Assembly: GCA_042576705.1 (NCBI GenBank)
Contig: JBHPEY010000004.1
Span: 1,393-65,392, forward strand
Source: Nanobdellota archaeon
Lineage (GTDB): Archaea; Nanobdellota; Nanobdellia; Woesearchaeales; UBA11576
DNA length: 64,000 nucleotides
Reading direction: 5' to 3'
The translations under genes were made by a program, and so were the position numbers. A model generated the notes under the pieces. The model was not told the origin of the DNA. It was given only the letters and a program-made list of their open reading frames with translations, and searched no databases. Shown here in pieces: positions 20,612-60,251 of this stretch; within the stretch, counting starts at the first letter, position 1; every line of letters starts with the position of its first letter.

Positions 20612-21495
20612 TTTGGTGTGGATCTACAAATTTGGAGGTGATAGGGGCCAGGAATGACCCCTCCTTTAAATACCTATCCTGGACAACAACCAGTTTTACC
20701 ACCAACAAGTAGCAAAAAAACGAAAGATTTATATACCACCTATATATCACTGAGTAGTAACAAAAAGAGATTTCACAATCATCAAAAACTCATGTTATGC
20801 TGTCTAAACACCTCTTTTCCCAGGCAAGTGCTTTGCATTTGCCCGGGTTTTATACTCATCCATACTAAATGATCACCTCTTTTTCCCCAGCGGGGTTCTG
20901 CTTGCAGAACCCTGCCAGGGTTTTTAAATCATGTTTTGGAAGACTAAAACTCGCATGTTTGCGAGTTTGAGGAATAGAAAACCTCTTGGGGAGGTTTTCT
21001 ATAAGTTCTGACAGCTCAACATAAGGGTTTAAATAGCATACTTACATGTATTATATTTACGCCAATTGTGCAAATGGGTCCTTTTAAGAGCCTGACAAAA
21101 TGTCTAGCAAGGATTTAAAGACACTCTTGCACAATACAGCCCGACGCGAGAGTACTCAAGGAAGCTGTCGATAAAAATCAAGCTATGAGCTTGGGAGTTA
21201 GTGTTTCGGGCGACATACCTTTTTTAAAGGCATAATCATTATTAACAGGCGCTTTAAAGCGCTAATCAGAACATAACTGCATATCAGAATAACTGGACTA
21301 TACAAGAACAAGAACACATATCATTTTCACGATCATTATTCATTTGAAATTGTTTTTCGATATTGGTTTGGGAGTTTAAAGCTCTTGTTCTATAGTCCTA
21401 TGTAAGGTAGAGTTTCATTCATTATTCAATGAAACAGCGCAGATAAAGTATGGCGCGATCTTATTCTGAATGCAGTAACCAGAAGGTGAAAGGAA
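20612..21495. other. 884-bp non-coding, AT-rich, hairpin- and TTTAAA-rich gap at a divergent strand switch
   Basis: No ORF of 60 aa or more with coding character. Perfect hairpins at 20892..20913, 20947..20968 and 20974..21002. A 14-bp palindrome GCGCTTTAAAGCGC at 21249..21262. A long inverted repeat 21295..21313 / 21383..21398. At least seven TTTAAA(T/G) boxes. Confidence 0.6.
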
Positions 21496-24905: not shown

Positions 24906-25721
24906 TTATCTGTTCCGGATTCTCTTTACAATATAATCAACAAGAAGATAGACAACAACACCCGAAACAGCTCCAATCAAGAACCACAACGCGATCTCTG
25001 GAGCCTGACTGATAACAGAACTCCCGCCACCCCACACCTCAGGCACCCTCTCGACAACAACCTGCTGCGCAGCAGGCGGAGCGTGAGTGACAACAGCCTC
25101 TGCAGCTTTAGGCACAGCCTGTTGCGCCTCAGATTCAACCACCTCAGACACTGTCCTGACAACTGCATCATCCACACCTGTAGCGACAGCTTCACCAGCA
25201 CCATCAGCCACAGCTTCTTCAGCAATCTCAGAAGCGCCGTACGCCATACTGTTGGCAGTATCCATGTCAGCGCTAGATTTCATCGCACCCCTCATAGGCG
25301 CAGCCAGCATCTCCGAAGCCCCAAAACTGCCAGAGAACAATTTTATCACACCTGCAGCAAATCCCATGATCAATGCAGTAGGGATTATCGACTTCAACTT
25401 CTCCCGTATAAGTGCTTTCTCACCCTCTGGAGCGATGATCACATACTGATTAGCAAGGCGATAATGATTCACTTCCTTTCCTTTTGCAGAATAATGATAC
25501 TCATCGCACTTCACAAGCCGCGCAGTCAGAAGTGCCTTCATGTTGTAATGCACAGTAGAGATGGGTATCTTGAGATCCTTGGAGATATCAGACTCTGTGG
25601 CATCCTTCTTGTCAGCCAGATGATCCAGCATCTTCCTGCAGGTATTGTTGCTGATGACCTCAGCCAGCTTCTTTGCCTTGTTTTCCTTCAACGACACCAG
25701 TAGGAACGATTTCTTTGCCAT
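24906..25721 (-). CDS. membrane-tethered ArsR-type winged-helix regulator
   Basis: N-terminal wHTH (CRKMLDHLADKKDATESDISKDLKIPISTVHYNMKALLTARLV), then two TM helices flanking an Ala/Val/Glu-rich segment. Confidence 0.6.
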   Translation of the reverse strand: MAKKSFLLVSLKENKAKKLAEVISNNTCRKMLDHLADKKDATESDISKDLKIPISTVHYNMKALLTARLVKCDEYHYSAKGKEVNHYRLANQYVIIAPEGEKALIREKLKSIIPTALIMGFAAGVIKLFSGSFGASEMLAAPMRGAMKSSADMDTANSMAYGASEIAEEAVADGAGEAVATGVDDAVVRTVSEVVESEAQQAVPKAAEAVVTHAPPAAQQVVVERVPEVWGGGSSVISQAPEIALWFLIGAVSGVVVYLLVDYIVKRIRNR

Positions 25722-25868
25722 GCTGTATATGTAGGCAGCCGCTTTATAAATAAGTGGCGATTGTTTCGAGCTCAGTTGAAGCTATTTCTGTATCTGATGC
25801 TGCGCCATACAGCCTGAAACCCCTAAAATCAGCCAAAAAACGAAACATTTATATACTCTTTTTCTTAC

Positions 25869-25988
25869 ATTCAGAAAAACAGTCGAAATTTCAAAAATTA
25901 TTTTATTATTTCAGACAAATAATTAGGCTTTCAGCAAATAATTTAGTATTTCAAAAAAACCTTCAGAAATTCAGAGAAGACTAAATTG
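25869..25988 (+). promoter_or_regulatory. six 20-bp-phased (T/A)TTCA(G/A)A repeats immediately upstream of the AbrB-like/giant-protein operon
   Basis: The TCA(G/A)A cores start at 25871, 25891, 25911, 25931, 25951 and 25971, exactly 20 bp apart. A TATA-like CATTTATATAC sits at about 25847..25857. Confidence 0.6.
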
Positions 25989-26276
25989 AAAAAGTATCCA
26001 AAGATTGTCCAGTGCGATAAGCGCGGGCAGATAGTGATCCCGAAGGACATCCGGCAGGAGCTTGGCGTAGACGAAGGTAGCGCTTTCTGGATGTACTCGA
26101 TAACCGAAGAAGGAATTCTACTGAAACTGGTTCCCGAGGACCGGCTCGAAGACCATAGCAGGGTTATCAAGACAATCAAGGAGAAGTCCGAGAAGATAGG
26201 CATCCAGGCAGAGAAGATCGACCACACTGTAAAGACATACAAGAAAAGACCAAAGGGCAGACTGGAGGAGATCTGA
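25986..26276 (+). CDS. AbrB/MazE/SpoVT-type DNA-binding protein
   Basis: VQCDKRGQIVIPKDIRQELGVDEGSAFWMYSITEEGILL is a swapped-hairpin barrel pattern. TTG start (no in-frame ATG upstream of the domain). The stop lies 4 nt before the giant gene's ATG. Confidence 0.7.
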   Translation: MKKYPKIVQCDKRGQIVIPKDIRQELGVDEGSAFWMYSITEEGILLKLVPEDRLEDHSRVIKTIKEKSEKIGIQAEKIDHTVKTYKKRPKGRLEEI

Positions 26277-26280
26277 CACG

Positions 26281-29200
26281 ATGCTGGACAGACTGCTAAG
26301 ACAAAGACGCGCAACAGTTGTTTCATTAGTCTTGGTTCTCTTGGTCCTGGTAGGGATGGGCATAGGTGCCTGGTTCATGAGCGATAGGATGGGCAGCGAG
26401 ATAACAGGTTTTGCAGCAATAGGCCCTGATGATACTTGTGGTGGTACAGGATTCTCGATAACAGCAAACACTGATCTGGCCGGGGACATAACAGGCTGTG
26501 ACGGCAGCGATGAACTAGAGTTCAATACTTACGACGACCTCACACTTGACTGCAAAGGCTATAAGATCAGTAGTACAGCAGGAGCGACCCTGGCCATCGA
26601 TACAAACTATAGGGACAACCTGGTGATTAAGAACTGTGTGATTGAAGGCTTCGACACAGGTATATCTGTGCATTCCAGTTCAGAATATATTCTTATTCAC
26701 GGCAATACATTCAATAATAGTAAAGACATAGATATTCCATCAGGTGAAAACGATGTCAGTGTTTACAATAATCATTTCATGGGACAGGAAGTTGACGACG
26801 TTGCATCAGACACCCTTTTCTGTGTGGCTGATGAAGGTAATTTCTACCAGTCATCGCTGACCCCTGAAGCAGGAGACTGCGGTCCCGTCGATATAACCTC
26901 CCCTGACGAGAACACGCAGGGTACGGCATCAGGCTACGAGTTCCGCGGCAACACTTCAATAACCCTGCAATGGAGAGCGCAGGATTCTCCTAAGACAATA
27001 AGCTACTATGCAGACTTCGCCAACGAATCTGCCCCAAGTACCTGGCAGACGATAGGCCCAGGCCCTGTCACAAACACGAACATAGCGTGGGATATAAGTG
27101 ATTTTGTTACGCCAGAGAACTTTACTATCAGGATAACCGCATATGATGGTGCAATCAATGGGACATCAGACAGCATGAGTATAGCCATTGACAATGACAA
27201 TGACCGGGATGGGTATTCTATGATTTCATCCAGGACATCCTCGGATTCCTGGGACTGCAATGACGCGGACAGCACAATCCACCAGCCAAGTTACCGTGAG
27301 AACTCATCGAGCGCAACCATTACAAACGCCTGCTTCAACGGAGTGGATGACGATTGCGATAGCACGACAGGTGGCGGTACAGACTGGACTGATTCCGGCT
27401 GCGGAGGAAGTTTTAGCGTCGGTTCACTGGACGATACCCTTTACACCAACGGCTCTATAGAGGACCTGACTACATCCAAGCTGAACATATCCGGAAACAA
27501 TTACTATGTCCTTGCCAGCAACTCGCAGGGGCAGGTGGAGTATTTCACCCAGACCGATCTCAGCAGCGTAGATCTTGCTTCTGTGTTCACGATAGGACAT
27601 AATACCATAACAGGCAGCAGCACCCAATACAGCGGCAGGTTCAACAAGGCTGCAAAAGTGACGTTCAAGGGGCTTTCAGAATACACAAAGACGCCCATAA
27701 TACTGGTAGATGGACAACCCTGCAACAGCACGGACTGCGCTGACCAGGAGCCGAGTCTCATAGAGACTTTCTCTGGAACATTATCTTTCGATATAGGGCA
27801 TTTTTCGACATTCACCACTACAAACAATAGCAGGATGGTGACATTCACCCACAACGGGGCAGAAGCAGCAGTGCTATCGAGTCAGTATCCCGCACCGCTG
27901 GAGACCTATCACAGGATAAAATTCTTCTCAAACTACTCAAGATATCCGAGCGGGATTCCTGTCAATAACCTGACCCCGAGCGGGAATCCTGAGACATATA
28001 ACAATGGGTCTTGTAACATCACATTGAGACATCCCAATGCATCAGCGATCTCCGGGGCGGATAATGTGGCGATGGACTATGATGATGTCTATGGTGTATA
28101 TGAGTTTGAGTCAGGGGTTTACAATTTCACTGTTCCTTCTGATTTCTATAGCTATGAGATTGATTGTCAGTCTGATGTGTATGAGCCAGTAAGTGCCTCA
28201 GAGACTTTCGGTGTATTTGATACGACCCCGCCGGAAAGGCCCACTCTGTATCCTCAGATACTGCTGCACCCTTCAAACCTGACAAGCGGGTTGAGTACGA
28301 TAGTTTCAGGTTATTTCGGAGAGTCTGACATAGATTATACTGTGATGGTGCTGCACGGCTCGTGGACATACGCCTTCAATGGTTCTCTTGGCTACAGCGA
28401 TACACACTCTGAATACAAAGGAGATGATATAGTCGTGAATTTTGGCGCGACAAAAGGTCAGGACGTCATATTCACCGCATGGAGTGAAACCACTGAAAAT
28501 GCGCTCCTCCAGTTCAGACATGTTGAGTTATCGAACCACAACAGGACGTATTTCAGGAGGTATTACATCACGCGTGCAAACAGGACAGGTGATGACATGC
28601 GGGTGGAGCTGAACGAGACTCTCGAGAGTGATGTTCCTATAGGCCAGTCCATGAGGCTGTATACCCAGCCATATCCTGCAGGTTATTTCTTCGTGAATGT
28701 CTCTTTGTTTTCAGGTGATAACAGAATAACTGTGTGGGGTGATGATCTTACAGGAAATTCAGGTAATTCCTCGACCGATTGGATAAGCGCAGCTTATCTT
28801 GAGACTGCCCCTGCTGCTGCAGAGCTTTGGCCATTGCCTGCTGCAGTGAACGAAAGTTTCCAGCTGATAGGAAAGCTGAATGAGTCGGTAGAGAGTCTTA
28901 ACCTGTCTGTCAATGTTGTGCAGGGAGATTACATAAACACGACATGGGAGGATGTGTTCAGGAGCAGTCAGCTGTCCGCAGAAGCGCCTGTTTCACAGGA
29001 CCGCCCGGTCAATGCAAGTTTCTTCTATATAGACGGGACTTCTGACTACCCGACCATTAACAGCACACTGGTCTGGAGCGACTCATGGGTTGAGTTCTCC
29101 ACCCATGACAGGGCATATTGGATAAGGTATAACGTGACCAGTGCATCGAAGTCCCCTGGCCAGGATGCCAGGGTGTACATAACCCCTGATCTTGAACAGC

Positions 29201-32200
29201 CAATCACAGCAGCCACCACAAGGGCAAGGTTCTATGATGATTCACATCCACAGGGTTGGTTCAACAACACAGTCGATATCAATATGCTCATGAACAGGAC
29301 GAATGAGATATACACTGTGGGTTTCCGTGGTGGGATCGAAGGATACCCGTCTGTTTCTCAATACGTATACAAGGATATGACTCCTCCTGTATTCGATCTG
29401 ACAGGCATCCCGAATTTCTCTAACACAAGGTACTTGACACTGAGGTTCAACCTATCAGATGATTACAAGATCAATTATTCGTCAATACAATATGTGATAC
29501 TTAGTGGGACCAATGGTACTATACCAACCTCATGCAATGACCTGTCAGTGAATCTTTCCCTGCTGGAATGTCAAGGGATTTATAACGTGACCACGAACGG
29601 CACCTATCTGACCTGGTTCTATGCTGAGGACGTGTCAGGATTAGCGACCAACATCTCCAAAAACATCTCTGTCCTGATAACAGAAGTGGACATCACCGCT
29701 GTCCACGACGAGGATGACATAACAAACGATCTCTGGCTGAATTTCAACTGGGATTACACGAACGGAGAGCTGCAGGAGTTCGAATACGCGTTAGGAGATG
29801 AGCCGTATCCGGACACGGATTTTGATTCTGTCAAGGCATGGACCGTGATGTGCAGCGCCGCAGGCAACTGCACACAGGACTGGGTGAATTTCACTCACGA
29901 CAGCAACGAATTAGACCTCAATCTCACAGAGCTGAAGATGAAGACAGGTACTGTCTATTACCTTACTGTCCGTGCAAAGAGCCAGGCCGGAGATTACGGA
30001 GCCATAAAGTCTTCCAATGGCATAATGTTCATAGACCAGACCCCGCCGCAGTTCAAGAACATGACCGACGAGGGCTCCTGGACAAACTCCCTGACCTCAC
30101 TCCAGGCAGACTGGGAATTCGAGGACAATGAGTCTGATATAATCGAGTACATATATTCGATAGGCAACGCGACATATCCTAATTCAGGGTTTGAGAACGC
30201 GCTCACGAGAAAATCTGTTGGTGGGACCCATAATTATGCCTACGAATCAGGCCTCTCGCTCACAGAAGGCCAGAAATACTATTTCAATGTCAAGGCAAGG
30301 AACGGGAACACTCAGATCAACTACAATGGCTCCTGGTCGGGCTGGCAGTCATCTGATGGGATAGTGGTTGATATTACACCTCCCTGGCAGGGAGCGGTCT
30401 CATACACTGGAGGTTATGAGACAACAGGTTATGTGACAATCCAGTACAGCACAGGGAATGATAATGCGTCAGGTCTTGCAGGCGGTATAAACGGCGTGAG
30501 CGGAATAGCTGGTGGCGCCATACTGGCAGGCTCGTCGCCGTTGATAGATGACACCTGTCAGCCTATATCTGATATTGACTTTGTCAACAATACTAACGTC
30601 ACGACTGGCCAGAGCTATACAGAGATAAATGTCACTTCAGGGAACTGTTACGCATTCAGGCTGTTCATCTGGGATAATGCCGGAAACTCAATAACCTATA
30701 AGATGCAGAACGAGACTCTCAGGTATGTCAAGGCAGATCACACGCCGCCATCTGACATAAGCACAATCACTGATGATGGTTTCTTCACATTCGACAGGAA
30801 GCAGCTTCACGCCGCCTGGACCAAAGCATCAGATTCAGGGACAGGCATGTCCCATTACTACTGGCGCATATTCCAGGACAATACAGCAGAGCCTAATGAC
30901 TGTAACATATCATATACCTATATCAATACTTCAGAGAACATAAACTGCTCTCTGTTCATGGACGGCAGCAGCGCAGGCAACGCGACAAATCCGGAGCTGG
31001 CGCTCACAGGTCTTAACCTTACACACAATCATAAGTACTATTTTGCGATAACCCCTTTCGACAGGGCAGGCAACAACGGAACAACCACTTTAAGCGATGG
31101 TATAATCTACATAGACAACGCGCCGCCTGGAGCAGTATCCATATACACAATCAACGAGGACAACGAAAGCTCTTCCCCATACTACACCCAGGACAGGTCA
31201 GGCAAGATAAACATAACAGCTTACGGCGACCTTGATGGTTATGAGGATATCGACAACTGCGTCCTCCTTTCAGAAGATATAGATTATGCAGAAGGAGGAG
31301 GGAGCATAGTCCTTGCGAACTGTACAGAGACAAGAGTGTTGAGCAACAAGTCAGAATTCACTATAGGACTTACAAACCTTTCTCTTATCACTATAACTGA
31401 AGTGTTCTGTGACGCTTCAACCAACAGTTCAGGACAGAGCGCAACCCAAGGCAACTGGAGCTGGCATCTTTCATGCCGTGACGAGCATTGGAATACGCAG
31501 AGCTATTCCCAGAACACGCTTGCATGGTTTGCTGTGGACTGGCCAGAACCACCTCTGATGAGCCTGAGCATGGGGAACATATCCTACGGCACACCAGTAT
31601 ACAGCGACGATGATATCTACTGTGAAGCCACCATATGGGATCCTGATCATTATCCTGGAAGCGCCCTTGACCCGACAAATATCACGATCACATGGAAAAA
31701 GGACGGGCAGGCAATACTTACCCAGTACACCAGCGCATCTGACCCTGAACTGGATGGGGTGTACAACGCATCAGCGATACTTGACTACAGCTACACGCGC
31801 AGAGGTGGCAATATCGCTTGTAATATCAGTGCTGACGATGAGCTGGAACTCACTGGCAGCAATGAGTCTTATGTGACGATAAACAACACTCGACCTTCCA
31901 GGTTAGAGCTGCTGTCTCCTAATGGTGCCACAGTGAAGAACATGACGTATCTTTCATGGATAGGACCCTACGACGATATTGACAGTGATTTCATGACAGT
32001 GGAGATTCAGGTAGACAACGAGAGCGGGTTCAATGCATCCAACAACCCGAGCTTGACTTATGGTTCGCCTGTGAAGTTGACTGTCAACGGCATCGCGGTT
32101 CCAGGCACCCAACGTAACCCTGATATGTATTCAGACATGATTGTCTATGAGGACAATCGTGCAGGCAACTGGGATATCTATCTTTACAGGCTGTCGGATG

Positions 32201-35200
32201 ACCTTGAATCCCAGGTCTCATCCTCTGCAGATGACCAGTCTAATCCGATGATCTACGGGGATTATGTCGTCTATGAGGAAGATATCGGGAGCGGGATGTC
32301 TAAGGTATACCTGTATGATATCAGGTCAGGCACGACTTCTCAGCTTGTCTCTTCGGTAAACAGCACCGGAGTGCATTTCTTTGGGGATTATGTCGCTTAC
32401 AATGACGGTTCAGGATTGAAGTATAAGGACATACTGTCGGGAGATTCAGGTTCTGTTGTGTCTGGGACTGCCGGAGCAAAGAAGATGAAGGTCTATGGCA
32501 AGCACATAGTCTGGATTGAGTCGGATGATGTGGCTTATCTGTATGATATTGTAAGCAATCAGACTGTAAATCTTGGCGGTCCGTATTCTGACACAGAGCT
32601 ATTCGGCTATCTTGTCGCTCTTGAGAACACCACAGGGTCTATCCGCGCGATAGATCTTTTCAACAGGAGCGACGTGGATATATTGGCAGGTTATGATGCA
32701 AGCCTCGAGGGAGCATTGCTTGCGAGAAACGATTCCGGGACGATAAAACTGACTGACTTGCTCAGTGACGTCCTCTATGATGTCTCGATAGGCACGGCAG
32801 GCGCCAACATACGTGTCTATGACAGCCTAATCCTATTTGATGATGGCGCCGATATCTATTACGCTAGACAGAACACGACCCTTCCGTTCAGGTTCGTGCG
32901 TCCGGCCTCTGCGCCGAACATTGCAGCGCATGGTCTGGACACGACAGGATCAATTGACGGGAGGTATTACTGGAGGATAAGAGGCTGTGATAGTTCTTTC
33001 CAGGATAACGCATGCATGTGGGGCACCAACTCGTCAAACAGTTCAGATCCTTCAACGACAGATTATACTACATTGATCATTGATAACACTCCGCCGGGAA
33101 TAACAAGCCTGAGCCCGACAGACGGGTCGATTGTGGCAGGTCAGTTCAGGGTCTATGCGAATATTTCTGATAGCATAAGTGATATCAGCTACGCGAACTA
33201 CAGCATAACCTATTCCAGTGGGGCTGTGCGTGCTTCAGGAGACCTTTCAAAGTCAGGAAGTCTTTGGAACAGCACTCTTCTGGATTTCCTGGATGTCACT
33301 GTCGACAGTTTCACCCTGACCATCTGGGCTAATGATACTATAGGCAACTGGAACAGCGCTGCGATAGACTTCACGGTAAACAGCAACACACCGTGGTTCC
33401 TTTTCGGCGGCAGGGGCGGGACAGAGATAATTGATGGGTCGACAGTGTTCAATGCCAGCATTGACTCTGACTTTATAGCATTCACAGTCAAGGATTCTTC
33501 ATTGAAGATTGTGGGGCCGCTTCCGGCCACCACGACGCGTTTCATCCAGTCAAAAACAGACAGCACTGTCACGAATCACAATTACTCGAATTCCATATCA
33601 GTACTGACCTGGCCCGATGGCACCTACAGGGTCGAGATGACAGGCACGAATCTCGACGGCACGAACAGCGCCAACAGGACATTCTATGTGGACCAGAAGA
33701 ATCCGCAGTGGAGCAGCAACAGGACGTATCCTGCTACGGCATTTGCGGCTGACCTGTTGACATTGTCGATAGACTGGGCGGACACGACCCTGGATGAAGT
33801 CAGGTTCATGCATAATAACACAGACATAACAAACCCGTCAGAGCAGATGCAGATATTTAGCAGTTCAGTATCCGAAGGTCCGATAAACTCATCCGCGATA
33901 GATGTAAGTGCATACATAAACAGGAACTTCTACTGGCGCTCCTGGGCCCTGGATGAGATGGGCAGGACGAACAACACCGCTGATTCAGGGTGGTTTACTG
34001 TATTCATAAACGACGACCCCCCAGATTTTGCAGGGACAATCACTATAGGGTCAGTGGATGAGGACAGCTCTATCACTTCAGGCCTGCCTGCACTCTCATC
34101 ATATTTCACAGACCCGAATGACGGCGGCACATGGGGAGACTTCGATAACCTGACATTCAGCGCGACGTATGATAATTCAAAGCTGAGCATAAGTCTGGAC
34201 CCTGCAACAGGGGCAGTCAACAGCCTGTCAGCGATCAATGACTTCAACGGGGGCACGACAGTCATCTTCAACGCGACTGATTCGTTCGGGAAGATGAATT
34301 ACTCTAACAGTGTCGCCATAACAGTCACGCCTGTCCAGGATGCTCCAAGGTTCTCTGCGATACCGACGGTATACACGACAGAAGACAACACGTCAGTGGT
34401 AAGCTTTGACCTTAGCAGCTACACCGCAGAGCCTGATGGTGACTCGTTCTGGTGGCTATCTCCGATGTATGACAGCACAGTGTTCGACCTGGACGGTTCA
34501 GACACTGCGAACGGCATATTCAACTTCACGCTCAAGGCCGACCAGTTCGGCTTGTACAACATAACATTCAGGGCCTACGATGGGGTGCTTTATGGCTACG
34601 GCAACGCCACAGTGAACATAGCCGGAGTCAACGATGCGCCAGTCATAGGCAACTTCACTTATCCTCCTGCAGGATCCACAAAAGGTGGAATAGTACAGCT
34701 GGCATGGCAGGCTGCAACAGACCAGGTTAATGAACAGCAGACCCTGAACTACGCTGTGGAGTTTTCAACAGACGGTGGGACCTCCTGGACGCTGGTAGCA
34801 GACTACGCCACTCTGGGTTCAGGTCTATATTACAGCTGGGACACGACAACACAGATATCTGGAGAAGAAAGTGTGACTCTAAGGCTCAATGTGACAGACG
34901 GCGTGAGTGTCAGCACACTCACATATCCGATCTTCACCGTAGACAACCTTCCACCGCAGATAACAGTCATAAGGCCGAGGACGACTGACGTGGGAAGCAG
35001 CATCACAACGCAGATAAGCACACTCCAGAATGCAAGCTGCACCTTTAGCATAAACAACACAGGCAGTCCAAGCATCTCAGGCACTTCAGAGACGACCGCG
35101 CATCAGGTCACTGTATCAAATCTCGCTTACAACGTGACATACAACCTGACAGTGAGCTGCACAGACAGCCCTGTCGGCAACTCAAACACGATCTATAAGC

Positions 35201-35577
35201 TCTTCGAACCAAGGGCTCACGCGATGGAGTTCATACAGGCCTACGCCTCGCCTCCATGGGCATACCCTGGCCAGCATGTCAACATCACTCTGGTCATAGC
35301 AGCCAACAACTCCTGGAAGAACATGACGGCGAGCATAAGCCCGACCTCCCAGAGCCTTACGCAGATCAATTTCACGCAGGAAGTGAATGAGTCGAACAAG
35401 TACACGCACCTGACGTCATCGTCGGGCATAGATACGAGCACATTGGGCACGTACAACATGACCATAACTGAATTATGGACTGTCGACGACCAGCAGGTCT
35501 TCCCTGCAGCACCCATACTCATACAGGATATACTAGAGGTCTTTACAGCGGTGAATCAGACCCTGAACATGATATGA
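26281..35577 (+). CDS. giant (3098 aa) N-terminally anchored, sequon-dense surface protein
   Basis: One N-terminal TM (VVSLVLVLLVLVGMGIGAWF). A parallel beta-helix-like stretch (LVIKNCVIEGFDTGISVHSS..IHGNTFNNS). MopE-type Cys/Asp motifs (DNDNDRDGY, DCNDADSTIH, CFNGVDDDCD). Ig/FN3-like repeats with DxTPP linkers. TolB/PD40-like propeller repeats (IVYEDNRAGNWDIYLY, GDYVVYEE, GDYVAYND, KHIVWIE). Cadherin/VCBS-like repeats with VQDAPRF and VNDAPVI. Confidence 0.85.
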   Translation: MLDRLLRQRRATVVSLVLVLLVLVGMGIGAWFMSDRMGSEITGFAAIGPDDTCGGTGFSITANTDLAGDITGCDGSDELEFNTYDDLTLDCKGYKISSTAGATLAIDTNYRDNLVIKNCVIEGFDTGISVHSSSEYILIHGNTFNNSKDIDIPSGENDVSVYNNHFMGQEVDDVASDTLFCVADEGNFYQSSLTPEAGDCGPVDITSPDENTQGTASGYEFRGNTSITLQWRAQDSPKTISYYADFANESAPSTWQTIGPGPVTNTNIAWDISDFVTPENFTIRITAYDGAINGTSDSMSIAIDNDNDRDGYSMISSRTSSDSWDCNDADSTIHQPSYRENSSSATITNACFNGVDDDCDSTTGGGTDWTDSGCGGSFSVGSLDDTLYTNGSIEDLTTSKLNISGNNYYVLASNSQGQVEYFTQTDLSSVDLASVFTIGHNTITGSSTQYSGRFNKAAKVTFKGLSEYTKTPIILVDGQPCNSTDCADQEPSLIETFSGTLSFDIGHFSTFTTTNNSRMVTFTHNGAEAAVLSSQYPAPLETYHRIKFFSNYSRYPSGIPVNNLTPSGNPETYNNGSCNITLRHPNASAISGADNVAMDYDDVYGVYEFESGVYNFTVPSDFYSYEIDCQSDVYEPVSASETFGVFDTTPPERPTLYPQILLHPSNLTSGLSTIVSGYFGESDIDYTVMVLHGSWTYAFNGSLGYSDTHSEYKGDDIVVNFGATKGQDVIFTAWSETTENALLQFRHVELSNHNRTYFRRYYITRANRTGDDMRVELNETLESDVPIGQSMRLYTQPYPAGYFFVNVSLFSGDNRITVWGDDLTGNSGNSSTDWISAAYLETAPAAAELWPLPAAVNESFQLIGKLNESVESLNLSVNVVQGDYINTTWEDVFRSSQLSAEAPVSQDRPVNASFFYIDGTSDYPTINSTLVWSDSWVEFSTHDRAYWIRYNVTSASKSPGQDARVYITPDLEQPITAATTRARFYDDSHPQGWFNNTVDINMLMNRTNEIYTVGFRGGIEGYPSVSQYVYKDMTPPVFDLTGIPNFSNTRYLTLRFNLSDDYKINYSSIQYVILSGTNGTIPTSCNDLSVNLSLLECQGIYNVTTNGTYLTWFYAEDVSGLATNISKNISVLITEVDITAVHDEDDITNDLWLNFNWDYTNGELQEFEYALGDEPYPDTDFDSVKAWTVMCSAAGNCTQDWVNFTHDSNELDLNLTELKMKTGTVYYLTVRAKSQAGDYGAIKSSNGIMFIDQTPPQFKNMTDEGSWTNSLTSLQADWEFEDNESDIIEYIYSIGNATYPNSGFENALTRKSVGGTHNYAYESGLSLTEGQKYYFNVKARNGNTQINYNGSWSGWQSSDGIVVDITPPWQGAVSYTGGYETTGYVTIQYSTGNDNASGLAGGINGVSGIAGGAILAGSSPLIDDTCQPISDIDFVNNTNVTTGQSYTEINVTSGNCYAFRLFIWDNAGNSITYKMQNETLRYVKADHTPPSDISTITDDGFFTFDRKQLHAAWTKASDSGTGMSHYYWRIFQDNTAEPNDCNISYTYINTSENINCSLFMDGSSAGNATNPELALTGLNLTHNHKYYFAITPFDRAGNNGTTTLSDGIIYIDNAPPGAVSIYTINEDNESSSPYYTQDRSGKINITAYGDLDGYEDIDNCVLLSEDIDYAEGGGSIVLANCTETRVLSNKSEFTIGLTNLSLITITEVFCDASTNSSGQSATQGNWSWHLSCRDEHWNTQSYSQNTLAWFAVDWPEPPLMSLSMGNISYGTPVYSDDDIYCEATIWDPDHYPGSALDPTNITITWKKDGQAILTQYTSASDPELDGVYNASAILDYSYTRRGGNIACNISADDELELTGSNESYVTINNTRPSRLELLSPNGATVKNMTYLSWIGPYDDIDSDFMTVEIQVDNESGFNASNNPSLTYGSPVKLTVNGIAVPGTQRNPDMYSDMIVYEDNRAGNWDIYLYRLSDDLESQVSSSADDQSNPMIYGDYVVYEEDIGSGMSKVYLYDIRSGTTSQLVSSVNSTGVHFFGDYVAYNDGSGLKYKDILSGDSGSVVSGTAGAKKMKVYGKHIVWIESDDVAYLYDIVSNQTVNLGGPYSDTELFGYLVALENTTGSIRAIDLFNRSDVDILAGYDASLEGALLARNDSGTIKLTDLLSDVLYDVSIGTAGANIRVYDSLILFDDGADIYYARQNTTLPFRFVRPASAPNIAAHGLDTTGSIDGRYYWRIRGCDSSFQDNACMWGTNSSNSSDPSTTDYTTLIIDNTPPGITSLSPTDGSIVAGQFRVYANISDSISDISYANYSITYSSGAVRASGDLSKSGSLWNSTLLDFLDVTVDSFTLTIWANDTIGNWNSAAIDFTVNSNTPWFLFGGRGGTEIIDGSTVFNASIDSDFIAFTVKDSSLKIVGPLPATTTRFIQSKTDSTVTNHNYSNSISVLTWPDGTYRVEMTGTNLDGTNSANRTFYVDQKNPQWSSNRTYPATAFAADLLTLSIDWADTTLDEVRFMHNNTDITNPSEQMQIFSSSVSEGPINSSAIDVSAYINRNFYWRSWALDEMGRTNNTADSGWFTVFINDDPPDFAGTITIGSVDEDSSITSGLPALSSYFTDPNDGGTWGDFDNLTFSATYDNSKLSISLDPATGAVNSLSAINDFNGGTTVIFNATDSFGKMNYSNSVAITVTPVQDAPRFSAIPTVYTTEDNTSVVSFDLSSYTAEPDGDSFWWLSPMYDSTVFDLDGSDTANGIFNFTLKADQFGLYNITFRAYDGVLYGYGNATVNIAGVNDAPVIGNFTYPPAGSTKGGIVQLAWQAATDQVNEQQTLNYAVEFSTDGGTSWTLVADYATLGSGLYYSWDTTTQISGEESVTLRLNVTDGVSVSTLTYPIFTVDNLPPQITVIRPRTTDVGSSITTQISTLQNASCTFSINNTGSPSISGTSETTAHQVTVSNLAYNVTYNLTVSCTDSPVGNSNTIYKLFEPRAHAMEFIQAYASPPWAYPGQHVNITLVIAANNSWKNMTASISPTSQSLTQINFTQEVNESNKYTHLTSSSGIDTSTLGTYNMTITELWTVDDQQVFPAAPILIQDILEVFTAVNQTLNMI

Positions 35578-37076
35578 AAATGAAGCACAAGAACATGACT
35601 GCAATGCTTGTATTTATCATCATAGCATTAGCATTCGCTTCATCCGCTGCTGCTGAGAACATCACTTACACGTACAAGACAGGTTCAGGCAGTGTAATAA
35701 CCACGAATCACACGCACGACCTGTCACAATTGAACGTCACGCTGCCGAATACGACATGGACCTTGGAGCTCAGTGATACTGATGGTAAGTTCGGTGTATC
35801 GGTGGCAGATATAAACGTGACAGCATATCCTGATCTGGATATACGCGCAGTGCCTGTAGATCTGAACACGCAGACCTACGACGGCAGCGTAGGAAGGACA
35901 AGCGGTTCTTTCAGGTACATCGCAAGATATGCGTATGCATTGAACGTATCCCGGATGTCAAATAAGGCATATACAATCACATTCGACTACTCGAATATTG
36001 TGGGAGTGTCAGATCCAGTGATCTGGAAATGCAACTTCAGTTTCGTGACGAACACGACTAGCACGTCCGAGTGCGCACAGCTGTCTACTTCTGCATCTAA
36101 CAATGTCGCTTCAGCAAGCGCAACAGGATTCTCAGCATTCTTCCTTACAGATGATGAATGCGCGGGAACTTGCGGCGGCATCTGCCCTTCTTGTGGTAGT
36201 TCGCCCGGTAGCAGTGGCGGTGGTGGCGGCGGAGGCGGTGGTGGTGGCCGCGGTCCTACGACAATCTACGTGACTCCGACATCTGAAGGGGCATCTGCAC
36301 AGGTCTATGCAGGAGATACGATCATAATCACATATAAGGATGAGAAATACACCTACAAGGTCGAGTCTGTCGAGTACATGAACGTCGGACTGGAATCCAA
36401 GACGACCTCGCTGGTCACAGAGATTGAGATGGGTGAGTTGAAGGACATGAACATCCCGTCCTTGTTCAATCAGGAAGTGCAGGTATCCATGCACATCTCG
36501 AACAGGTTTGCAGTCCTGACATTCAGGATAAAGGAGAAGAAGCCTTTCTCATTCCCGTTACTTCCGCCAAGACCGCAGGAAGCCACACCGTCGCAGGCAT
36601 CTACACCGACCGGAGCAGCAACACCTATAGAGGTTGTCACACCGACGGCACCTGCTTCTCCCGGCGCAGCTGTTGCTGAAACACCTGAAATTCCTGTTCC
36701 AGAGTCGCCGATAGGCATCTGGACCATAATATTTGCATTGATATTCGTCATGTTCCTAGTGGGTGGCGTGGCCCTTTACAGGGTCAGGCTGCATCGCTTG
36801 GAAAAACCCCCTACTGTAACTAGGACAGGTTTGGAGACAACTGGTTTACCCGAAACTTCTTCCAAAGTCTCCAAGCCTGCTCCTTCAATTAAACCTGTAG
36901 TAGGGCCCAAGCGAGACGTCCACCTTACACAAGAGAAAAAACTCGATTTGGAGAAGTACATCTTCCATGCGTACAGTCTAGGGTTCAAGGAAGATCAGGT
37001 CAGGCAGGCCCTCATTGCCAAGGGTTGGCCTGAGCCTACAGTAAAAAGGGTCATGAAGGAGATCAAGCCCAAGTGA
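35574..37076 (+). CDS. secreted, C-terminally anchored surface protein, hypothetical
   Basis: Start taken at the ATGA overlap with the giant gene (MKMKHKNMTAMLVFIIIALAFASSAAA signal) rather than the track start 35475. Has CAGTCGGICPSCG, a poly-Gly run, a P/T/A linker, a TM helix and a cytoplasmic tail LEKYIFHAYSLGFKEDQVRQALIAKGWPEPTVKRVMKE. Confidence 0.7.
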   Translation: MKMKHKNMTAMLVFIIIALAFASSAAAENITYTYKTGSGSVITTNHTHDLSQLNVTLPNTTWTLELSDTDGKFGVSVADINVTAYPDLDIRAVPVDLNTQTYDGSVGRTSGSFRYIARYAYALNVSRMSNKAYTITFDYSNIVGVSDPVIWKCNFSFVTNTTSTSECAQLSTSASNNVASASATGFSAFFLTDDECAGTCGGICPSCGSSPGSSGGGGGGGGGGGRGPTTIYVTPTSEGASAQVYAGDTIIITYKDEKYTYKVESVEYMNVGLESKTTSLVTEIEMGELKDMNIPSLFNQEVQVSMHISNRFAVLTFRIKEKKPFSFPLLPPRPQEATPSQASTPTGAATPIEVVTPTAPASPGAAVAETPEIPVPESPIGIWTIIFALIFVMFLVGGVALYRVRLHRLEKPPTVTRTGLETTGLPETSSKVSKPAPSIKPVVGPKRDVHLTQEKKLDLEKYIFHAYSLGFKEDQVRQALIAKGWPEPTVKRVMKEIKPK

Positions 37077-37089
37077 TGGTGACATTTCT

Positions 37090-37878
37090 ATGCCGACAAG
37101 AACACCAAAAGCAAAGATACTGGTAAGGAAAGGTCAGAAGCAGTTCTTCGAGGATCTCAATCGCGAGGTCACGATAGTCAAGGAGAAGCATCACTACGTG
37201 GCAGATATTTCAAAGGATTTCTCTACGGCATATGGCACGATAAAGAAGGCAGACCTGAAGAAGACCGGAAAGATAAAGACACACACCAAGAAAGAGTTCA
37301 ACATCTTCGACGCCTCTTTCATAGACATCTACAAGCGCATCAAGCGTCTGCCTCAGATAATCCCTCTGAAAGATATAGGGTTCATGATAGCAAAGACAGG
37401 CATAGGTAAGGAATCAATTGTTGTGGAAGGAGGAGCAGGCTCAGGTGCGCTCAGCATAATGCTTTCAAGATACTGCAAGAAGGTATATAGCTACGAGATA
37501 AAGCCTGAACATCTGGAAGTTGTCAAGAATAACATAAAATCCCTGAACATAAAGAACATCACCCTGAAAAACAAGAGCATGTACGATAAGATAGCAGAAA
37601 AAGACGTCGATCTTGTCTGCCTGGACCTCCCTGAGCCCTGGAACGCCATCGGGCCTGCTGCAAAGGCACTGAAACAAGGGGGATTCATAATAAACTACTC
37701 GCCGACCATAATGCAGACAGCAGATTTCGTCAACGCGCTCCTAAAGAGGGATGATTTCATCCATCTGGAGACTGCTGAGATAATTGAGCGGAAGTGGGAA
37801 GTCGAGAAACGCAAAGTGAGGCCCATCTCAAAAGCAAATATCCATTCAGGTTTCTTGTCTATAGGAAGGAGAATATGA
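37090..37878 (+). CDS. trmI: tRNA (adenine-N1)-methyltransferase TrmI/Trm61 family
   Basis: VVEGGAGSGALSIMLSR SAM motif I and VCLDLPEPWNAI; 262 aa. Confidence 0.8.
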   Translation: MPTRTPKAKILVRKGQKQFFEDLNREVTIVKEKHHYVADISKDFSTAYGTIKKADLKKTGKIKTHTKKEFNIFDASFIDIYKRIKRLPQIIPLKDIGFMIAKTGIGKESIVVEGGAGSGALSIMLSRYCKKVYSYEIKPEHLEVVKNNIKSLNIKNITLKNKSMYDKIAEKDVDLVCLDLPEPWNAIGPAAKALKQGGFIINYSPTIMQTADFVNALLKRDDFIHLETAEIIERKWEVEKRKVRPISKANIHSGFLSIGRRI

Positions 37879-58427: not shown

Positions 58428-59474
58428 ATGAGATTCCTGATACTGTTGATACCAGCAATAATACTCCTCCTGGGCGCAGCAAAGGCCTCAGAGACCAGAA
58501 GCACGATTGAGATGAGCATAAGCATAGACCCAGAGACAATCGATCTCAACCAATCAACTATTACCCTCAACGCCGCTCAACAATACAGCACCCAAAAAGA
58601 CACCAACATATCCATACCAATCCACGCATATAGGGGCAAGACACTAAAACGCACCATCTACATATGGATAGAAGACAACGAAGCAAAGAGAATCTCAACA
58701 AAAGAGAAGATATCATTACCAAAAAGATTCACTGCATACAACCTGACAGCAAATCTAAGCTTCAAAAGCTGCCCAACCACGACCCCTGCAAAGATTGTGG
58801 TCCAAGGCCTGGACCTGAACACCACCAAGCCAATCAAGGTCATCCTAGAAGATTGCGCCCAGCCCATCCACGAAAAAGAAAATATATCGAATGTTGTATC
58901 TTTCGACATATTAGATATCAAAAAACAAGCAGAATCAGGAACACAATTCAAGACAATGATACGGATAACCAACCCGACAGAAGATCATCTTGAAGTTGAT
59001 GCCTGGAGCTATGTATACAAGCACTCAAATTGCTACTCAGGCGAAAGAGAGCAGAACAGGAAGGCAATAAACCTCCCGGAATTCTCAAACGTGACATTCG
59101 ATCTCGAAAACACAGCGACAGCACCTGATGGAAACTACACGATAAAGTTCCTGTTCCTAAGATCAGACCGGAAAACCCCGAAAGAAATGAAGTTTCCGTT
59201 AGTCATACACAGTACAAACACCACCAATGAACAGACAAGCTCGCTGAGCATAGAAAAACAGGCAGCATCTACATCAGAAGAGCAGCAGAACCAGACAGAC
59301 ACATCAAGATTCGCAAAAAAACGCACCCTCTCCACATCAAACATCACAAACAAAACCCGCTCAGGTGAACCTGTCTACATGTCAAGCTCTGCAAAAGCAA
59401 GAAAGCTGACAGTCTATTTTCTCATAGCAGTCCTTGCACTCATTCTAGTGGCATTGATATTCAAGAGACTGTGA
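58428..59474 (+). CDS. secreted protein with C-terminal TM anchor, hypothetical
   Basis: Signal MRFLILLIPAIILLLGAAKA, two beta-sandwich-like halves with several N-x-S/T sequons, a Ser/Thr/Gln-rich stalk and the C-terminal LTVYFLIAVLALILVALIF. Confidence 0.6.
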   Translation: MRFLILLIPAIILLLGAAKASETRSTIEMSISIDPETIDLNQSTITLNAAQQYSTQKDTNISIPIHAYRGKTLKRTIYIWIEDNEAKRISTKEKISLPKRFTAYNLTANLSFKSCPTTTPAKIVVQGLDLNTTKPIKVILEDCAQPIHEKENISNVVSFDILDIKKQAESGTQFKTMIRITNPTEDHLEVDAWSYVYKHSNCYSGEREQNRKAINLPEFSNVTFDLENTATAPDGNYTIKFLFLRSDRKTPKEMKFPLVIHSTNTTNEQTSSLSIEKQAASTSEEQQNQTDTSRFAKKRTLSTSNITNKTRSGEPVYMSSSAKARKLTVYFLIAVLALILVALIFKRL

Positions 59475-60184: not shown

Positions 60185-60251
60185 TGTATATGGGGAGTAG
60201 GGCGACCAGAGAATTCTAGAATTCTCTGAGTATCAGAAGGAAACTAAAAAC

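Follow-up and report, generated by a model that had tools for sequence, protein, structure and literature searches.

Woesearchaeota are abundant, uncultured, ultra-small archaea that are thought to live attached to other cells. Here we analyze a stretch of 64,000 nt ("the window") from a Nanobdellota archaeon of the Woesearchaeales lineage (GenBank assembly GCA_042576705.1, contig JBHPEY010000004.1, positions 1,393 to 65,392 of the forward strand) and, within it, a locus in which the gene for a small AbrB/SpoVT-type protein, which we term AbrB96, is followed by genes for a 3098-aa surface protein (the giant) and a 500-aa tail-anchored protein (p500). We found that AbrB96 genes lead into genes for secreted proteins across the Woesearchaeota, behind phased palindromes that look like operators, and that the giant carries a Nup98-type domain by which it probably cleaves itself.

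Comparison with described systems

The transition-state regulator AbrB of B. subtilis acts as a repressor at its own promoter, and biofilm and surface genes are under its control. To our knowledge, it is monocistronic and has no strict consensus site. AbrB96 resembles AbrB and SpoVT in its fold family, in its size (96 aa), and in its division into an N-terminal swapped-hairpin DNA-binding half and a C-terminal oligomerization half. Unlike B. subtilis AbrB, it is accompanied by a sharp 15-bp palindrome in phased arrays, its gene is coupled to a surface-protein gene behind an archaeal promoter (B recognition element, or BRE, and TATA box), and it keeps R23 alone of the four DNA-contact arginines. 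MraZ is encoded by the first gene of the dcw operon, has two UPF0040 repeats, and binds its own leader at a series of direct repeats with a regular spacing of about 10 bp. As in dcw, a gene for a small regulator of the swapped-hairpin type heads a long, envelope-related operon with repeats in the leader. However, there is no sequence relationship beyond the fold class, and the downstream genes of dcw encode conserved enzymes, whereas here they encode a hypervariable surface protein. Type II toxin-antitoxin systems (MazE, VapB) share with our loci an AbrB-fold gene in first position, a 4-nt overlap of stop and start, and palindromes over the promoter, but the second gene here encodes a secreted glycoprotein of up to >3300 aa, and the defining toxin partner is absent. 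We rejected membership in this class because the downstream gene encodes a secreted protein of 255 to >3300 aa in 53 of 62 loci and no toxin family was detected.

The giant's S59 domain is like that of Nup98 and Nup145 in that a full-length profile match ends on the catalytic HFS motif. Zhang et al. (PMC3482391) placed the autopeptidases of Nup98, GPS, and ZU5 in one group and pointed out that ZU5 domains are present in large surface proteins of bacteria; as in their proposal for those bacterial domains, the S59 domain here lies near the membrane-proximal end of a huge extracellular protein. Unlike the known S59/ZU5 cases, ours occur in glycoproteins of DPANN archaea, with up to 5 copies per protein, and cleavage here is predicted from sequence. 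Judged by its profile match, the module is an archaeal, Nup98-like case of the ZU5/S59 autopeptidase theme.

The SlaA/SlaB pair of the Sulfolobales has a similar anatomy, as far as genes alone can tell: a large, sequon-rich protein with Ig-like domains stands beside a smaller one that has a signal peptide and, at its C-terminus, a transmembrane (TM) helix. Beta-helix (pectin-lyase-like) and Ig-like folds have been reported for candidate surface-layer (S-layer) or surface proteins of Nanobdella aerobiophila (bioRxiv 10.1101/2023.10.27.564410). Like SlaA/SlaB and the Nanobdella proteins, the proteins of our locus are extremely divergent in sequence. No match to SlaA or SlaB was found for the giant by sequence or for p500 by sequence or fold, and the N-terminal anchor of the giant and the conserved 95-residue cytoplasmic tail of p500 set the locus apart from both; neither an AbrB gene nor an operator array has been described for the SlaA/SlaB or Nanobdella loci. 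Giant proteins of nanohaloarchaea are discussed in PMC10266531. By description, the giant is like these and other giant DPANN surface proteins: multi-thousand-residue, multi-domain, extracellular proteins of ultra-small symbiotic archaea that are proposed to contact hosts. Unlike theirs, its AbrB-led operon context is specific to the Woesearchaeota loci that we examined.

Giant DPANN surface proteins, self-cleaving ZU5/S59 modules, and AbrB- or MraZ-like regulators are each of a known kind. We searched the literature on AbrB in combination with Woesearchaeota, DPANN, or S-layers and on archaeal Nup98-type domains, and the arrangement is not described there. To judge from this literature, there is no earlier description of a fixed-length AbrB protein coupled across a lineage to a hypervariable surface-protein slot, of its phased operator array, or of a Nup98-type domain in archaeal proteins of this kind.

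Gene layout and the AbrB96 protein

The AbrB96 gene (25986..26276, plus strand) starts with TTG and ends 4 nt before the gene for the giant (26281..35577, plus strand), whose reading frame is uninterrupted across all 3098 codons. The giant's TGA overlaps the ATG of p500 at 35574 (as ATGA), and the 500-aa p500 frame ends at 37076; an alternative gene call (P0125) starts p500 two codons downstream, for 498 aa. This map of the open reading frames (ORFs) is exactly the layout given in a first-pass annotation of the window, which had also assigned the first gene to the AbrB/SpoVT type. That assignment is borne out, as AbrB96 scores above the curated cut-offs of PF04014 (30.4 versus 24.7 bits) and TIGR01439 (36.2 versus 28.3 bits). 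The last AbrB96 codons contain a Shine-Dalgarno (SD)-like GGAGGAG (26264-26270) ahead of the giant gene.

The N-terminal swapped-hairpin domain of AbrB96 spans aa 5-50, and two helices follow in the C-terminal part, at aa 59-71 and 75-87. The AbrB96 family has at least 363 homologues, nearly all of 95-97 aa, and the N-terminal half is near-invariant (MKKYPKIVQCDKRGQIVIPKDIR...EGILLKK). The family profile matches the N-domains of B. subtilis AbrB and SpoVT chains in the PDB (E=2e-5), and AbrB96 has the same length as the 96-residue AbrB chain of PDB entry 9a4b. The AlphaFold (AF2) monomer has a predicted local distance difference test score (pLDDT) of 68.6 and suggests a beta-alpha-beta-beta half-barrel plus two helices (helix 20-26, strands 34-40 and 43-48). 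Its fold matches in the PDB are weak (E of 0.07-0.9): SpoVT, AbrB, the Sulfolobus "histone-like" AbrB-type protein Sso7c4 (5itm/5itj), C68, and MazE. The NCBIfam identity "HgcC" was rejected (33.8 bits against a cut-off of 70), as the similarity is at the domain level only.

AbrB96 genes precede genes for secreted proteins across the Woesearchaeota

For the only homologue with upstream DNA, the entire neighborhood is syntenic with the window, which proves little alone. We therefore scored 80 species-representative genome loci that were fetched via the AbrB family, of which 62 were evaluable. (The metagenome-assembled genomes, or MAGs, that contain homologues are labeled Woesearchaeota, Nanoarchaeota, or Nanobdellota.) In 53 of the 62 loci, the ORF directly downstream of AbrB has an N-terminal hydrophobic segment, and in 46 the AbrB stop and the partner's start overlap by 4 nt. 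An SD-like GGAG lies in the final AbrB codons in 32 of 49 relatives. The partners range from 255 to >3300 aa, with 33 of at least 1000 aa and 25 of at least 2000 aa, and many of these lengths are lower bounds because the ORF runs beyond the 10-kb flank. Their median sequon density is 3.6 per 100 aa. They are highly divergent: some have mosaic similarity of 24-32% to the window's giant, and others are Ig- or cadherin-like proteins of 250-1000 aa that are anchored at both the N- and the C-terminus. In a comparison of the window with locus L002, no gene of the neighborhood has diverged more than those for the giant and p500 (47-48%, versus 62-81% for neighboring genes). Thus, the linkage of AbrB to a secreted protein is conserved well past general synteny. 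The first-pass annotation had considered the pairing of AbrB with a giant gene unusual and had proposed a comparison with relatives; within the lineage, this pairing is the rule.

The order AbrB, variable genes, GCD14/TrmI (a tRNA methyltransferase gene) is present in 36 loci, and 28 of these have 1-4 genes for secreted, sequon-rich proteins in between (0.8-12 kb). The GCD14/TrmI gene is the conserved downstream border of a variable surface-protein slot.

One explanation for these patterns is that the linkage is passive: AbrB96 and TrmI would be ancestral neighbors, the interval between them would be a hot spot for the gain, loss, and swapping of surface genes, and co-transcription would be due to chance. 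This would account for the conserved synteny of the flanking housekeeping genes, for the range of cargo sizes and the variable domain content, for the Schlafen/AlbA_2 gene that is inserted after AbrB in three loci, and for the 8 of 36 loci in which TrmI follows AbrB at a distance of 142-2045 nt with no surface gene between them. However, the 4-nt ATGA overlap (46/62) and the SD-like motif within the AbrB codons would be hard to keep through cargo replacement without selection for coupling. Also, a secreted, sequon-rich immediate partner is kept in 85% of species despite divergence or replacement. We consider passive linkage to be quite unlikely.

Some features of individual loci should be mentioned. 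The inserted gene (~460 aa, Schlafen/AlbA_2 plus RecG-C-type HATPase_c_4) lies between AbrB and the surface gene in L004 (10428-11819), L007 (3237-4628), and L012 (8850-10232), and in L007 a giant homologue follows it. Many partners (those in L009, L018, L019, L039, L005, L008, L010, L074) begin with KKGQ, KRGQ, KKAQ, or KKGE followed by ~20 hydrophobic residues, a pattern that resembles the class III (prepilin-type) signal peptides of archaea and not a Sec signal; the corresponding N-terminus of the window's giant is RRA-TVVSLVLVLLVLVGMG. Many third-party annotation (TPA) MAG contigs (L005, L006, L008, L014, and others) are titled "uncultured Methanosarcinales archaeon" and L026 is titled "Alphaproteobacteria bacterium," but these labels are probably wrong, or the contigs mis-binned, because gene content and synteny match the Woesearchaeota loci. 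Finally, in assembly GCA_016929255.1, L001 ends 23 nt past the AbrB stop and L003 begins 104 nt before an N-terminally truncated giant, so the break in this assembly falls within the variable portion that encodes the giant's N-terminal part.

Phased palindromes at the AbrB96 promoter

Upstream of the AbrB96 gene, a BRE-like CGAAA followed by the TATA box TTTATATA (25848-25855) can be read directly from the plus strand (25841..25855), and CGAAACATTTA(A/T)ATA is kept in the close relatives L003-L012. The leader of the operon is about 105 nt. In aligned regions upstream of AbrB genes, we recognized by eye a 15-bp palindrome, TTCTGA-WWW-TCAGAA. The window has two operator-like sites of this type on the plus strand. 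Site 1 (TCTTACATTCAGA, 25863..25875) has one mismatch to TCTGA-N3-TCAGA and is centered 14 nt past the TATA box. Site 2 (TCAGAAATTCAGA, 25963..25975) lies 10 nt ahead of the TTG start and, with up to 2 mismatches allowed, occurs nowhere else in the window. In a position weight matrix scan of the whole 64 kb, site 1 ranks 2nd and site 2 ranks 4th. Six half-sites of the form (A/T)TTCA(G/A) occupy 25869..25975 of the plus strand with an exact period of 20 nt (they start at 25869, 25889, 25909, 25929, 25949, and 25969), and this half-site array is the only 126-nt stretch of the window with at least 4 TTCAG.

Across the lineage, the 250 nt ahead of AbrB contain 87 exact copies of the core CTGA-N3-TCAG, spread over 53 of 67 loci (5.25 per kb). 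Elsewhere in the same loci (~1 Mb) there are 28 copies (0.028 per kb), so the upstream enrichment is 184-fold. Versions with N4 or N5 spacers and three control palindromes had zero copies upstream of AbrB. Just five copies with an A/T-only spacer lie outside of -300..0, two of them at -330 and -362. The palindromes are also found upstream of short AbrB variants of 45-65 aa.

The positions of the sites are constrained as well. A TATA box precedes the first site in 58 loci, and in 50 of these the site is centered 12-27 nt past the TATA box (with modes near 14 and 24). In archaeal promoters, transcription is expected to start at this same distance, and site 1 of the window covers the expected start. 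The proximal site in relatives typically abuts the start codon (with a peak at -1..-20). Finally, the distances from site to site keep to multiples of 20 nt: 75 of 82 deviate from one by no more than 2 nt, versus 25% expected by chance.

Because sequence rather than pairing is conserved, because the sites keep a helical phasing, and because their distance from the TATA box is fixed, they point to recognition on DNA by an oligomeric protein. As the AbrB96 gene accompanies the sites, autoregulation by AbrB96 is the economical reading that fits this co-occurrence. The repeats that the first-pass annotation had noticed at 25869..25988 are thus real and belong to a lineage-wide, operator-like array. 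Its proposal of a regulated attachment module is therefore supported as to a regulated surface module; attachment is one way to read the surface proteins, and a coat or S-layer-like role is equally open.

Alternatively, the palindromes might be bound by another factor, such as the divergent, membrane-tethered HTH_20 regulator whose gene lies upstream in the window, or they might act as RNA hairpins in stability or translation, and AbrB96 would be an abundant nucleoid-type protein or an unrelated regulator that just shares a strong promoter with the surface genes. Palindromic DNA by itself cannot tell DNA-level from RNA-level roles, and the proximal site abuts the start codon. The Sulfolobus "histone-like" protein among the fold matches of AbrB96, the loss of 3 of the 4 DNA-contact arginines of AbrB, and the arrays without a neighboring AbrB gene (L120, L132) are also what this explanation would lead one to expect. 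But the sites accompany AbrB in 53 of 67 species, including those with short AbrB variants and those where no HTH_20 gene adjoins (HTH_20 adjoins AbrB in only ~19 of 80 loci). As for RNA, the direct TCAGA repeats of the window's clade are incapable of forming hairpins, the predicted fold of the leader is no better than that of shuffles (z=-0.62), and Rfam had no match in the whole window at the gathering threshold or in 20.5-26.3 kb at E<=1. The 20-bp-multiple spacing and the fixed TATA distance also point to DNA recognition. We think that another binder or an RNA-level role is unlikely.

We also searched in reverse, for CTGAWWWTCAG-N9-CTGAWWWTCAG in metagenome contigs, and obtained 65 loci. 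Most of them are unrelated longer hairpins or tandem repeats of other organisms because the core is too loose for so large a collection. Eight loci have at least 2 strict sites, and in 3 of these an AbrB gene lies just downstream. In L132 (49-110) and L120 (288-330), two or three perfect TTCTGA-W3-TCAGAA sites lie 20 nt apart behind a TATA box; in L132 they are followed by ~400 nt without an ORF, and a gene for a 408-aa Cys-rich protein is nearby on the opposite strand. At 60209-60242, the window has its own best match to the palindrome, TCTCTGAGTATCAGAAG (the ScpB-proximal site, 60226-60236), with another palindrome, GAGAATTCTAGAATTCTC, in front of it. The center of the best match lies 21 nt ahead of the start codon (ATG) of the ScpB gene (60252-61448), which is the position of the proximal site at AbrB. 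This may be a second target, or it may be due to chance.

The giant surface protein

The predicted giant (3098 aa, 339 kDa, pI 4.1) has a hydrophobic N-terminal anchor, as the first-pass annotation had stated, at aa 11-29. This is its sole hydrophobic segment, and hydrophobic-segment analysis found no C-terminal anchor. The protein contains 114 N-x-S/T sequons, or 3.68 per 100 aa; the 37 that we counted within residues 1-1100 agree with the earlier estimate of about 40. Shuffles of its composition give 48.8±5.9 sequons (maximum 70), so the observed excess is 2.3-fold, and the mean for 18 other ORFs in the window is 0.53 per 100 aa. We infer that the giant is exported and heavily N-glycosylated.

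We scanned the giant with Pfam and NCBIfam as ten overlapping 400-aa pieces, which gave mostly no matches or sub-threshold ones. The mixture of domains that had been proposed for it is only partly borne out, at scores that are mostly near or below threshold. From the N-terminus, a right-handed beta-helix is probable at about aa 85-200 (26533..26880, plus strand, as for all domains of the giant), with sub-threshold matches of aa 91-166 to Beta_helix (PF13229, 22.2 versus 25.9 bits) and NosD (PF05048, 20.6 versus 23.6 bits). The homologue P0003 has precomputed matches to both families; its N-terminal region is longer, with an extra 440-aa insert at this place. An Asp/Cys-rich stretch (aa 304-375) is conserved, with D306, D308, D310, C326, C359, and C374 invariant. 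The first-pass annotation had listed MopE-type Cys/Asp motifs in the giant, which our scan does not bear out: no piece, including aa 1-400 and 301-700, has a Pfam match to that family at E<=1. An array of Ig/FN3-like beta-sandwiches follows at about aa 640-1900 (28198..31980), in units of ~110-130 aa, several of which open with D-x-T-P-P (DxTPP motifs are at aa 647, 1032, 1252, 1364, 1486, and 1612); the fn3 match reaches 19.5 bits against a cut-off of 25, and the Ig matches are weak. A putative beta-propeller block of about 6-7 blades, which are visible in the translation and had been called TolB/PD40-like, lies at about aa 1935-2225 (32083..32955). It matches TIGR04275 (beta_prop_Msarc) in two stretches, with 81.8 bits on a 400-aa piece and 68.4 on the whole protein, versus a cut-off of 85. 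Finally, putative cadherin-like, tandem-95, or VCBS-like repeats lie at about aa 2600-2890 (34078..34950), with near- or sub-threshold matches to Cadherin_4 (24.4 versus 25.1 bits), Big_9 (20.5 versus 23.6), tandem-95 (28.4 versus 90), and VCBS (15.6 versus 15.5, with no single stretch that passes). The family profile of the giant has a weak match to protocadherin ectodomains (E=2.8e-4). A phmmer search of the giant against PDB sequences gave no match. Apart from the S59 module that is described below, the library scans turned up no protease or nuclease domain, and the Pfam and NCBIfam scans turned up no toxin-like domain or toxin family. These surface-protein features suggest an adhesin or a coat, and an S-layer-like role is equally possible.

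On another reading, the 9.3-kb ORF would be an assembly chimera, which the first-pass annotation had named as a refuting outcome, or a decaying pseudogene without a product. Repetitive, multi-domain genes are prone to misassembly, and in one related MAG a contig break interrupts this gene (the L001/L003 case above). This reading is effectively excluded. The frame is open for 3098 codons, and collinear homologues (P0002, P0003, and those in L006 and L008) are found in four independent assemblies, at 45-48% identity over 2300-2900 aa and with no frameshift. Also, the sequon excess over composition and the hundreds of positions that are invariant across six homologues are not expected of a chimera or a decaying gene. 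Database homologues of the giant are few, with only two (47-48% identity) among 5.8 billion proteins.

A Nup98-type autoproteolytic domain

The best-supported domain of the giant, by sequence comparison, is one that the earlier domain list had missed: a Nup98-type autoproteolytic domain (peptidase S59, ZU5 superfamily) at aa 376-530 (27406..27870), with an intact HFS motif. The lead was a weak Nucleoporin2 match together with weak Nup98 matches of a six-sequence profile. A family profile (A4) that was built from 14 copies of the domain in related giants matches the autoproteolytic domain of human Nup98 (2q5x_A) with E=3.1e-10 and 43 bits (query 14-125 versus chain 10-152), and the alignment ends on the catalytic motif ("FdvsHFStyt" versus "FKVSHFSKYG"). 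In the window's copy, the motif is H507-F508-S509 (27799-27807), with ...SFDIG-H507-F508-S509-TFTTT aligned to ...FKVS-HFS-KYG of Nup98, and the predicted cut is F508|S509. The giant is probably self-cleaving; the predicted products are a 54-kDa anchored stub and a 284-kDa distal fragment.

The giant has one copy of the domain, and its relatives have one to five. Individually, 12 of the 14 copies match PF04096, and the distant relatives P0161 and P0162 pass its cut-off. Among 21 copies across loci, the motif is HFS in 5, HFT in 6, GFS in 3, SFS in 2, NFS in 1, and absent in 4, so that 11 have HFS or HFT. The family is rare: at E<=1e-3, an exhaustive search yielded just 94 cluster representatives out of 1.84 billion. 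Those at greater distance are surface proteins of a prokaryotic type (with CARDB, LamG, or subtilase domains), and some of them are above the Pfam cut-off.

The tail-anchored protein p500

The p500 protein (35574..37076, plus strand), a predicted tail-anchored glycoprotein, starts with a Sec signal peptide, and its TM helix lies at about aa 382-400, in agreement with the earlier description of it as secreted and C-terminally anchored. After the signal peptide come a first beta domain, a Cys-rich insert with a poly-Gly linker, a second beta domain, a Pro-rich stalk, PESPI and the TM helix, the cytoplasmic motif LYRxRLHRLEKPPTVTRTGLE..GLPETSS, and a three-helix module. Beta domain 1 has 9 sequons and a conserved Cys pair and ends with GFSAFF ([GN]F[SA]xFF in the family). 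The Cys-rich insert is optional in the family, and the cytoplasmic motif is almost invariant within a conserved tail of 95 residues. We found 18 homologues, all in close relatives (36-51% identity). The AF2 model has a pLDDT of 70.7, with about 85-94 in domain 1. Weak Pfam matches to UBA and RecX were seen, and the only matches to PDB sequences were those of the Gly linker to chains of single-chain variable fragments (scFv). A search of the model against the PDB with Foldseek gave the ankyrin ZU5-ZU5-UPA tandem as the best match, which is not significant (E of 1.8e-3, TM-score 0.2). We rejected the idea that domain 1 is a degenerate S59/ZU5 module (hhalign of profile A4 versus A2, probability 0.6%; hmmsearch E=0.022 over 30 residues). 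The anatomy suggests, and this is speculation, that p500 is a membrane-spanning partner that ties the outside to a conserved internal component.

The almost invariant cytoplasmic motif of p500 must bind something, and this brings up the possibility that AbrB96 acts on protein, as an antitoxin-like factor or a chaperone whose C-terminal helices bind the nascent giant or the p500 tail and control export or activity. The toxin-antitoxin grammar of the locus (AbrB-fold gene first, 4-nt overlap, promoter palindromes) would fit with this. However, p500 is limited to the closest relatives (19 matches), whereas AbrB96 is lineage-wide; the partners have cytoplasmic N-termini that are short and lack conservation; the library scans of the giant turned up no toxin-like domain; and short AbrB variants without the C-terminal helices still precede giant ORFs (L071, L072, L075). 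We regard a protein-level role as very improbable.

Proposed mechanism

We lean, at somewhat better than even confidence, toward a Woesearchaeota-wide operon of AbrB96 and then a surface glycoprotein, with negative autoregulation, self-cleavage, and a role as a coat or adhesin. An AbrB96 oligomer would assemble on the phased sites, so as to occlude the transcription start site and coat the leader. This binding would give negative autoregulation of AbrB96 and of the co-transcribed and translationally coupled surface genes. The giant would be exported, heavily N-glycosylated, and cut between F508 and S509. The 54-kDa stub, with the beta-helix, an FN3-like domain, the Cys/Asp motif, and the S59 domain, would stay membrane-bound and would hold the 284-kDa distal fragment (the Ig-like array, the propeller, and the cadherin-like repeats) non-covalently, as in Nup98-Nup96. 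Together, the giant and p500 would form the cell's main outward-facing coat or an adhesin for contact with host cells or surfaces.

Several observations weigh against this proposal. First, the protein that recognizes the palindromes is taken to be AbrB96 from co-occurrence. Of the DNA-contact arginines of B. subtilis AbrB (R8, R15, R23, and R24), those other than R23 align to V8, Q15, and Q24 in the HMMER alignment (other basic residues, K2, K6, R13, and K20, are invariant in the AbrB96 family), and the AF2 model of AbrB96 is of moderate confidence only. Second, the window's own sites are degenerate (with TCTTA/TCAGA left halves), and L120, L132, and L143 are low-GC double-site arrays with no adjacent AbrB gene, so the operator may serve other promoters or another factor. 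Third, TrmI directly follows AbrB in the 8 of 36 loci mentioned above, so the regulator does not need a surface gene. Fourth, the window's S59 copy alone scores 17.4 bits, which is below the PF04096 cut-off of 28.4, and some copies elsewhere lack the His. Finally, p500 as the giant's partner is guesswork because Foldseek of its model against the PDB found no significant structural relative, and no SlaB.

A bolder reading, which we find doubtful, is that AbrB96 and the 20-bp-phased palindromes are a lineage-wide master switch of the Woesearchaeota surface. The regulator would polymerize along the leader and thereby set, or turn on and off, the output of whatever coat or adhesin gene occupies the slot. 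An arms race against hosts and viruses would have this cargo exchanged and enlarged, and the giant would be matured by Nup98-type self-cleavage to a detachable distal adhesin.

Neighboring genes and other features of the window

The GCD14/TrmI-type tRNA methyltransferase gene (37090..37878, plus strand; PF08704, 82.8 bits) starts 13 nt past p500 and is probably co-transcribed with it. It is followed by a 177-aa ORF and then by a HIT-family gene, with gaps of 12 and 0 nt. Given these short gaps, the plus-strand block from AbrB through the TrmI and HIT genes may be one long operon. On the minus strand upstream of AbrB96, a gene for a 271-aa HTH_20/ArsR-type regulator (24906..25721) encodes two hydrophobic segments (111-129 and 243-261), by which the protein would be tethered to the membrane. 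Also upstream on that strand is the gene for a DUF4349 protein (201 bits), which has a C-terminal helix and whose N-terminus is lipobox-like. Both neighbors are as the first-pass annotation had described them. Nearby housekeeping genes in the window encode DnaG primase, RIO kinase, ABCE1, and ScpB.

Between the RIO kinase and DnaG primase genes, ~880 nt (20612-21495) contain no credible ORF. This stretch opens with a perfect BRE/TATA, aaacgaaagaTTTATATAcc (about 20719-20738), and has several GC-rich hairpins inside. It may be an unannotated non-coding RNA; Rfam had no match in it, even at E<=1. A 348-aa ORF at 58428-59474 has a signal peptide, a C-terminal TM helix, 12 sequons (3.45 per 100 aa), and no Pfam family, and it is probably a further glycosylated surface protein.

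Implications

The AbrB96 gene and its operator array are a sequence landmark for the principal secreted glycoprotein gene of each genome, where homology search fails. The locus also offers a regulator-operator pair that is amenable to in vitro study without cultivation. The predicted self-cleavage at F508|S509 would yield an anchored stub and a detachable distal part of the giant. With the S59 module, a domain that is best known from the nuclear pore gains a rare prokaryotic branch, and if the master-switch reading were true, this branch would bear on the origin of the eukaryotic Nup98 autopeptidase.

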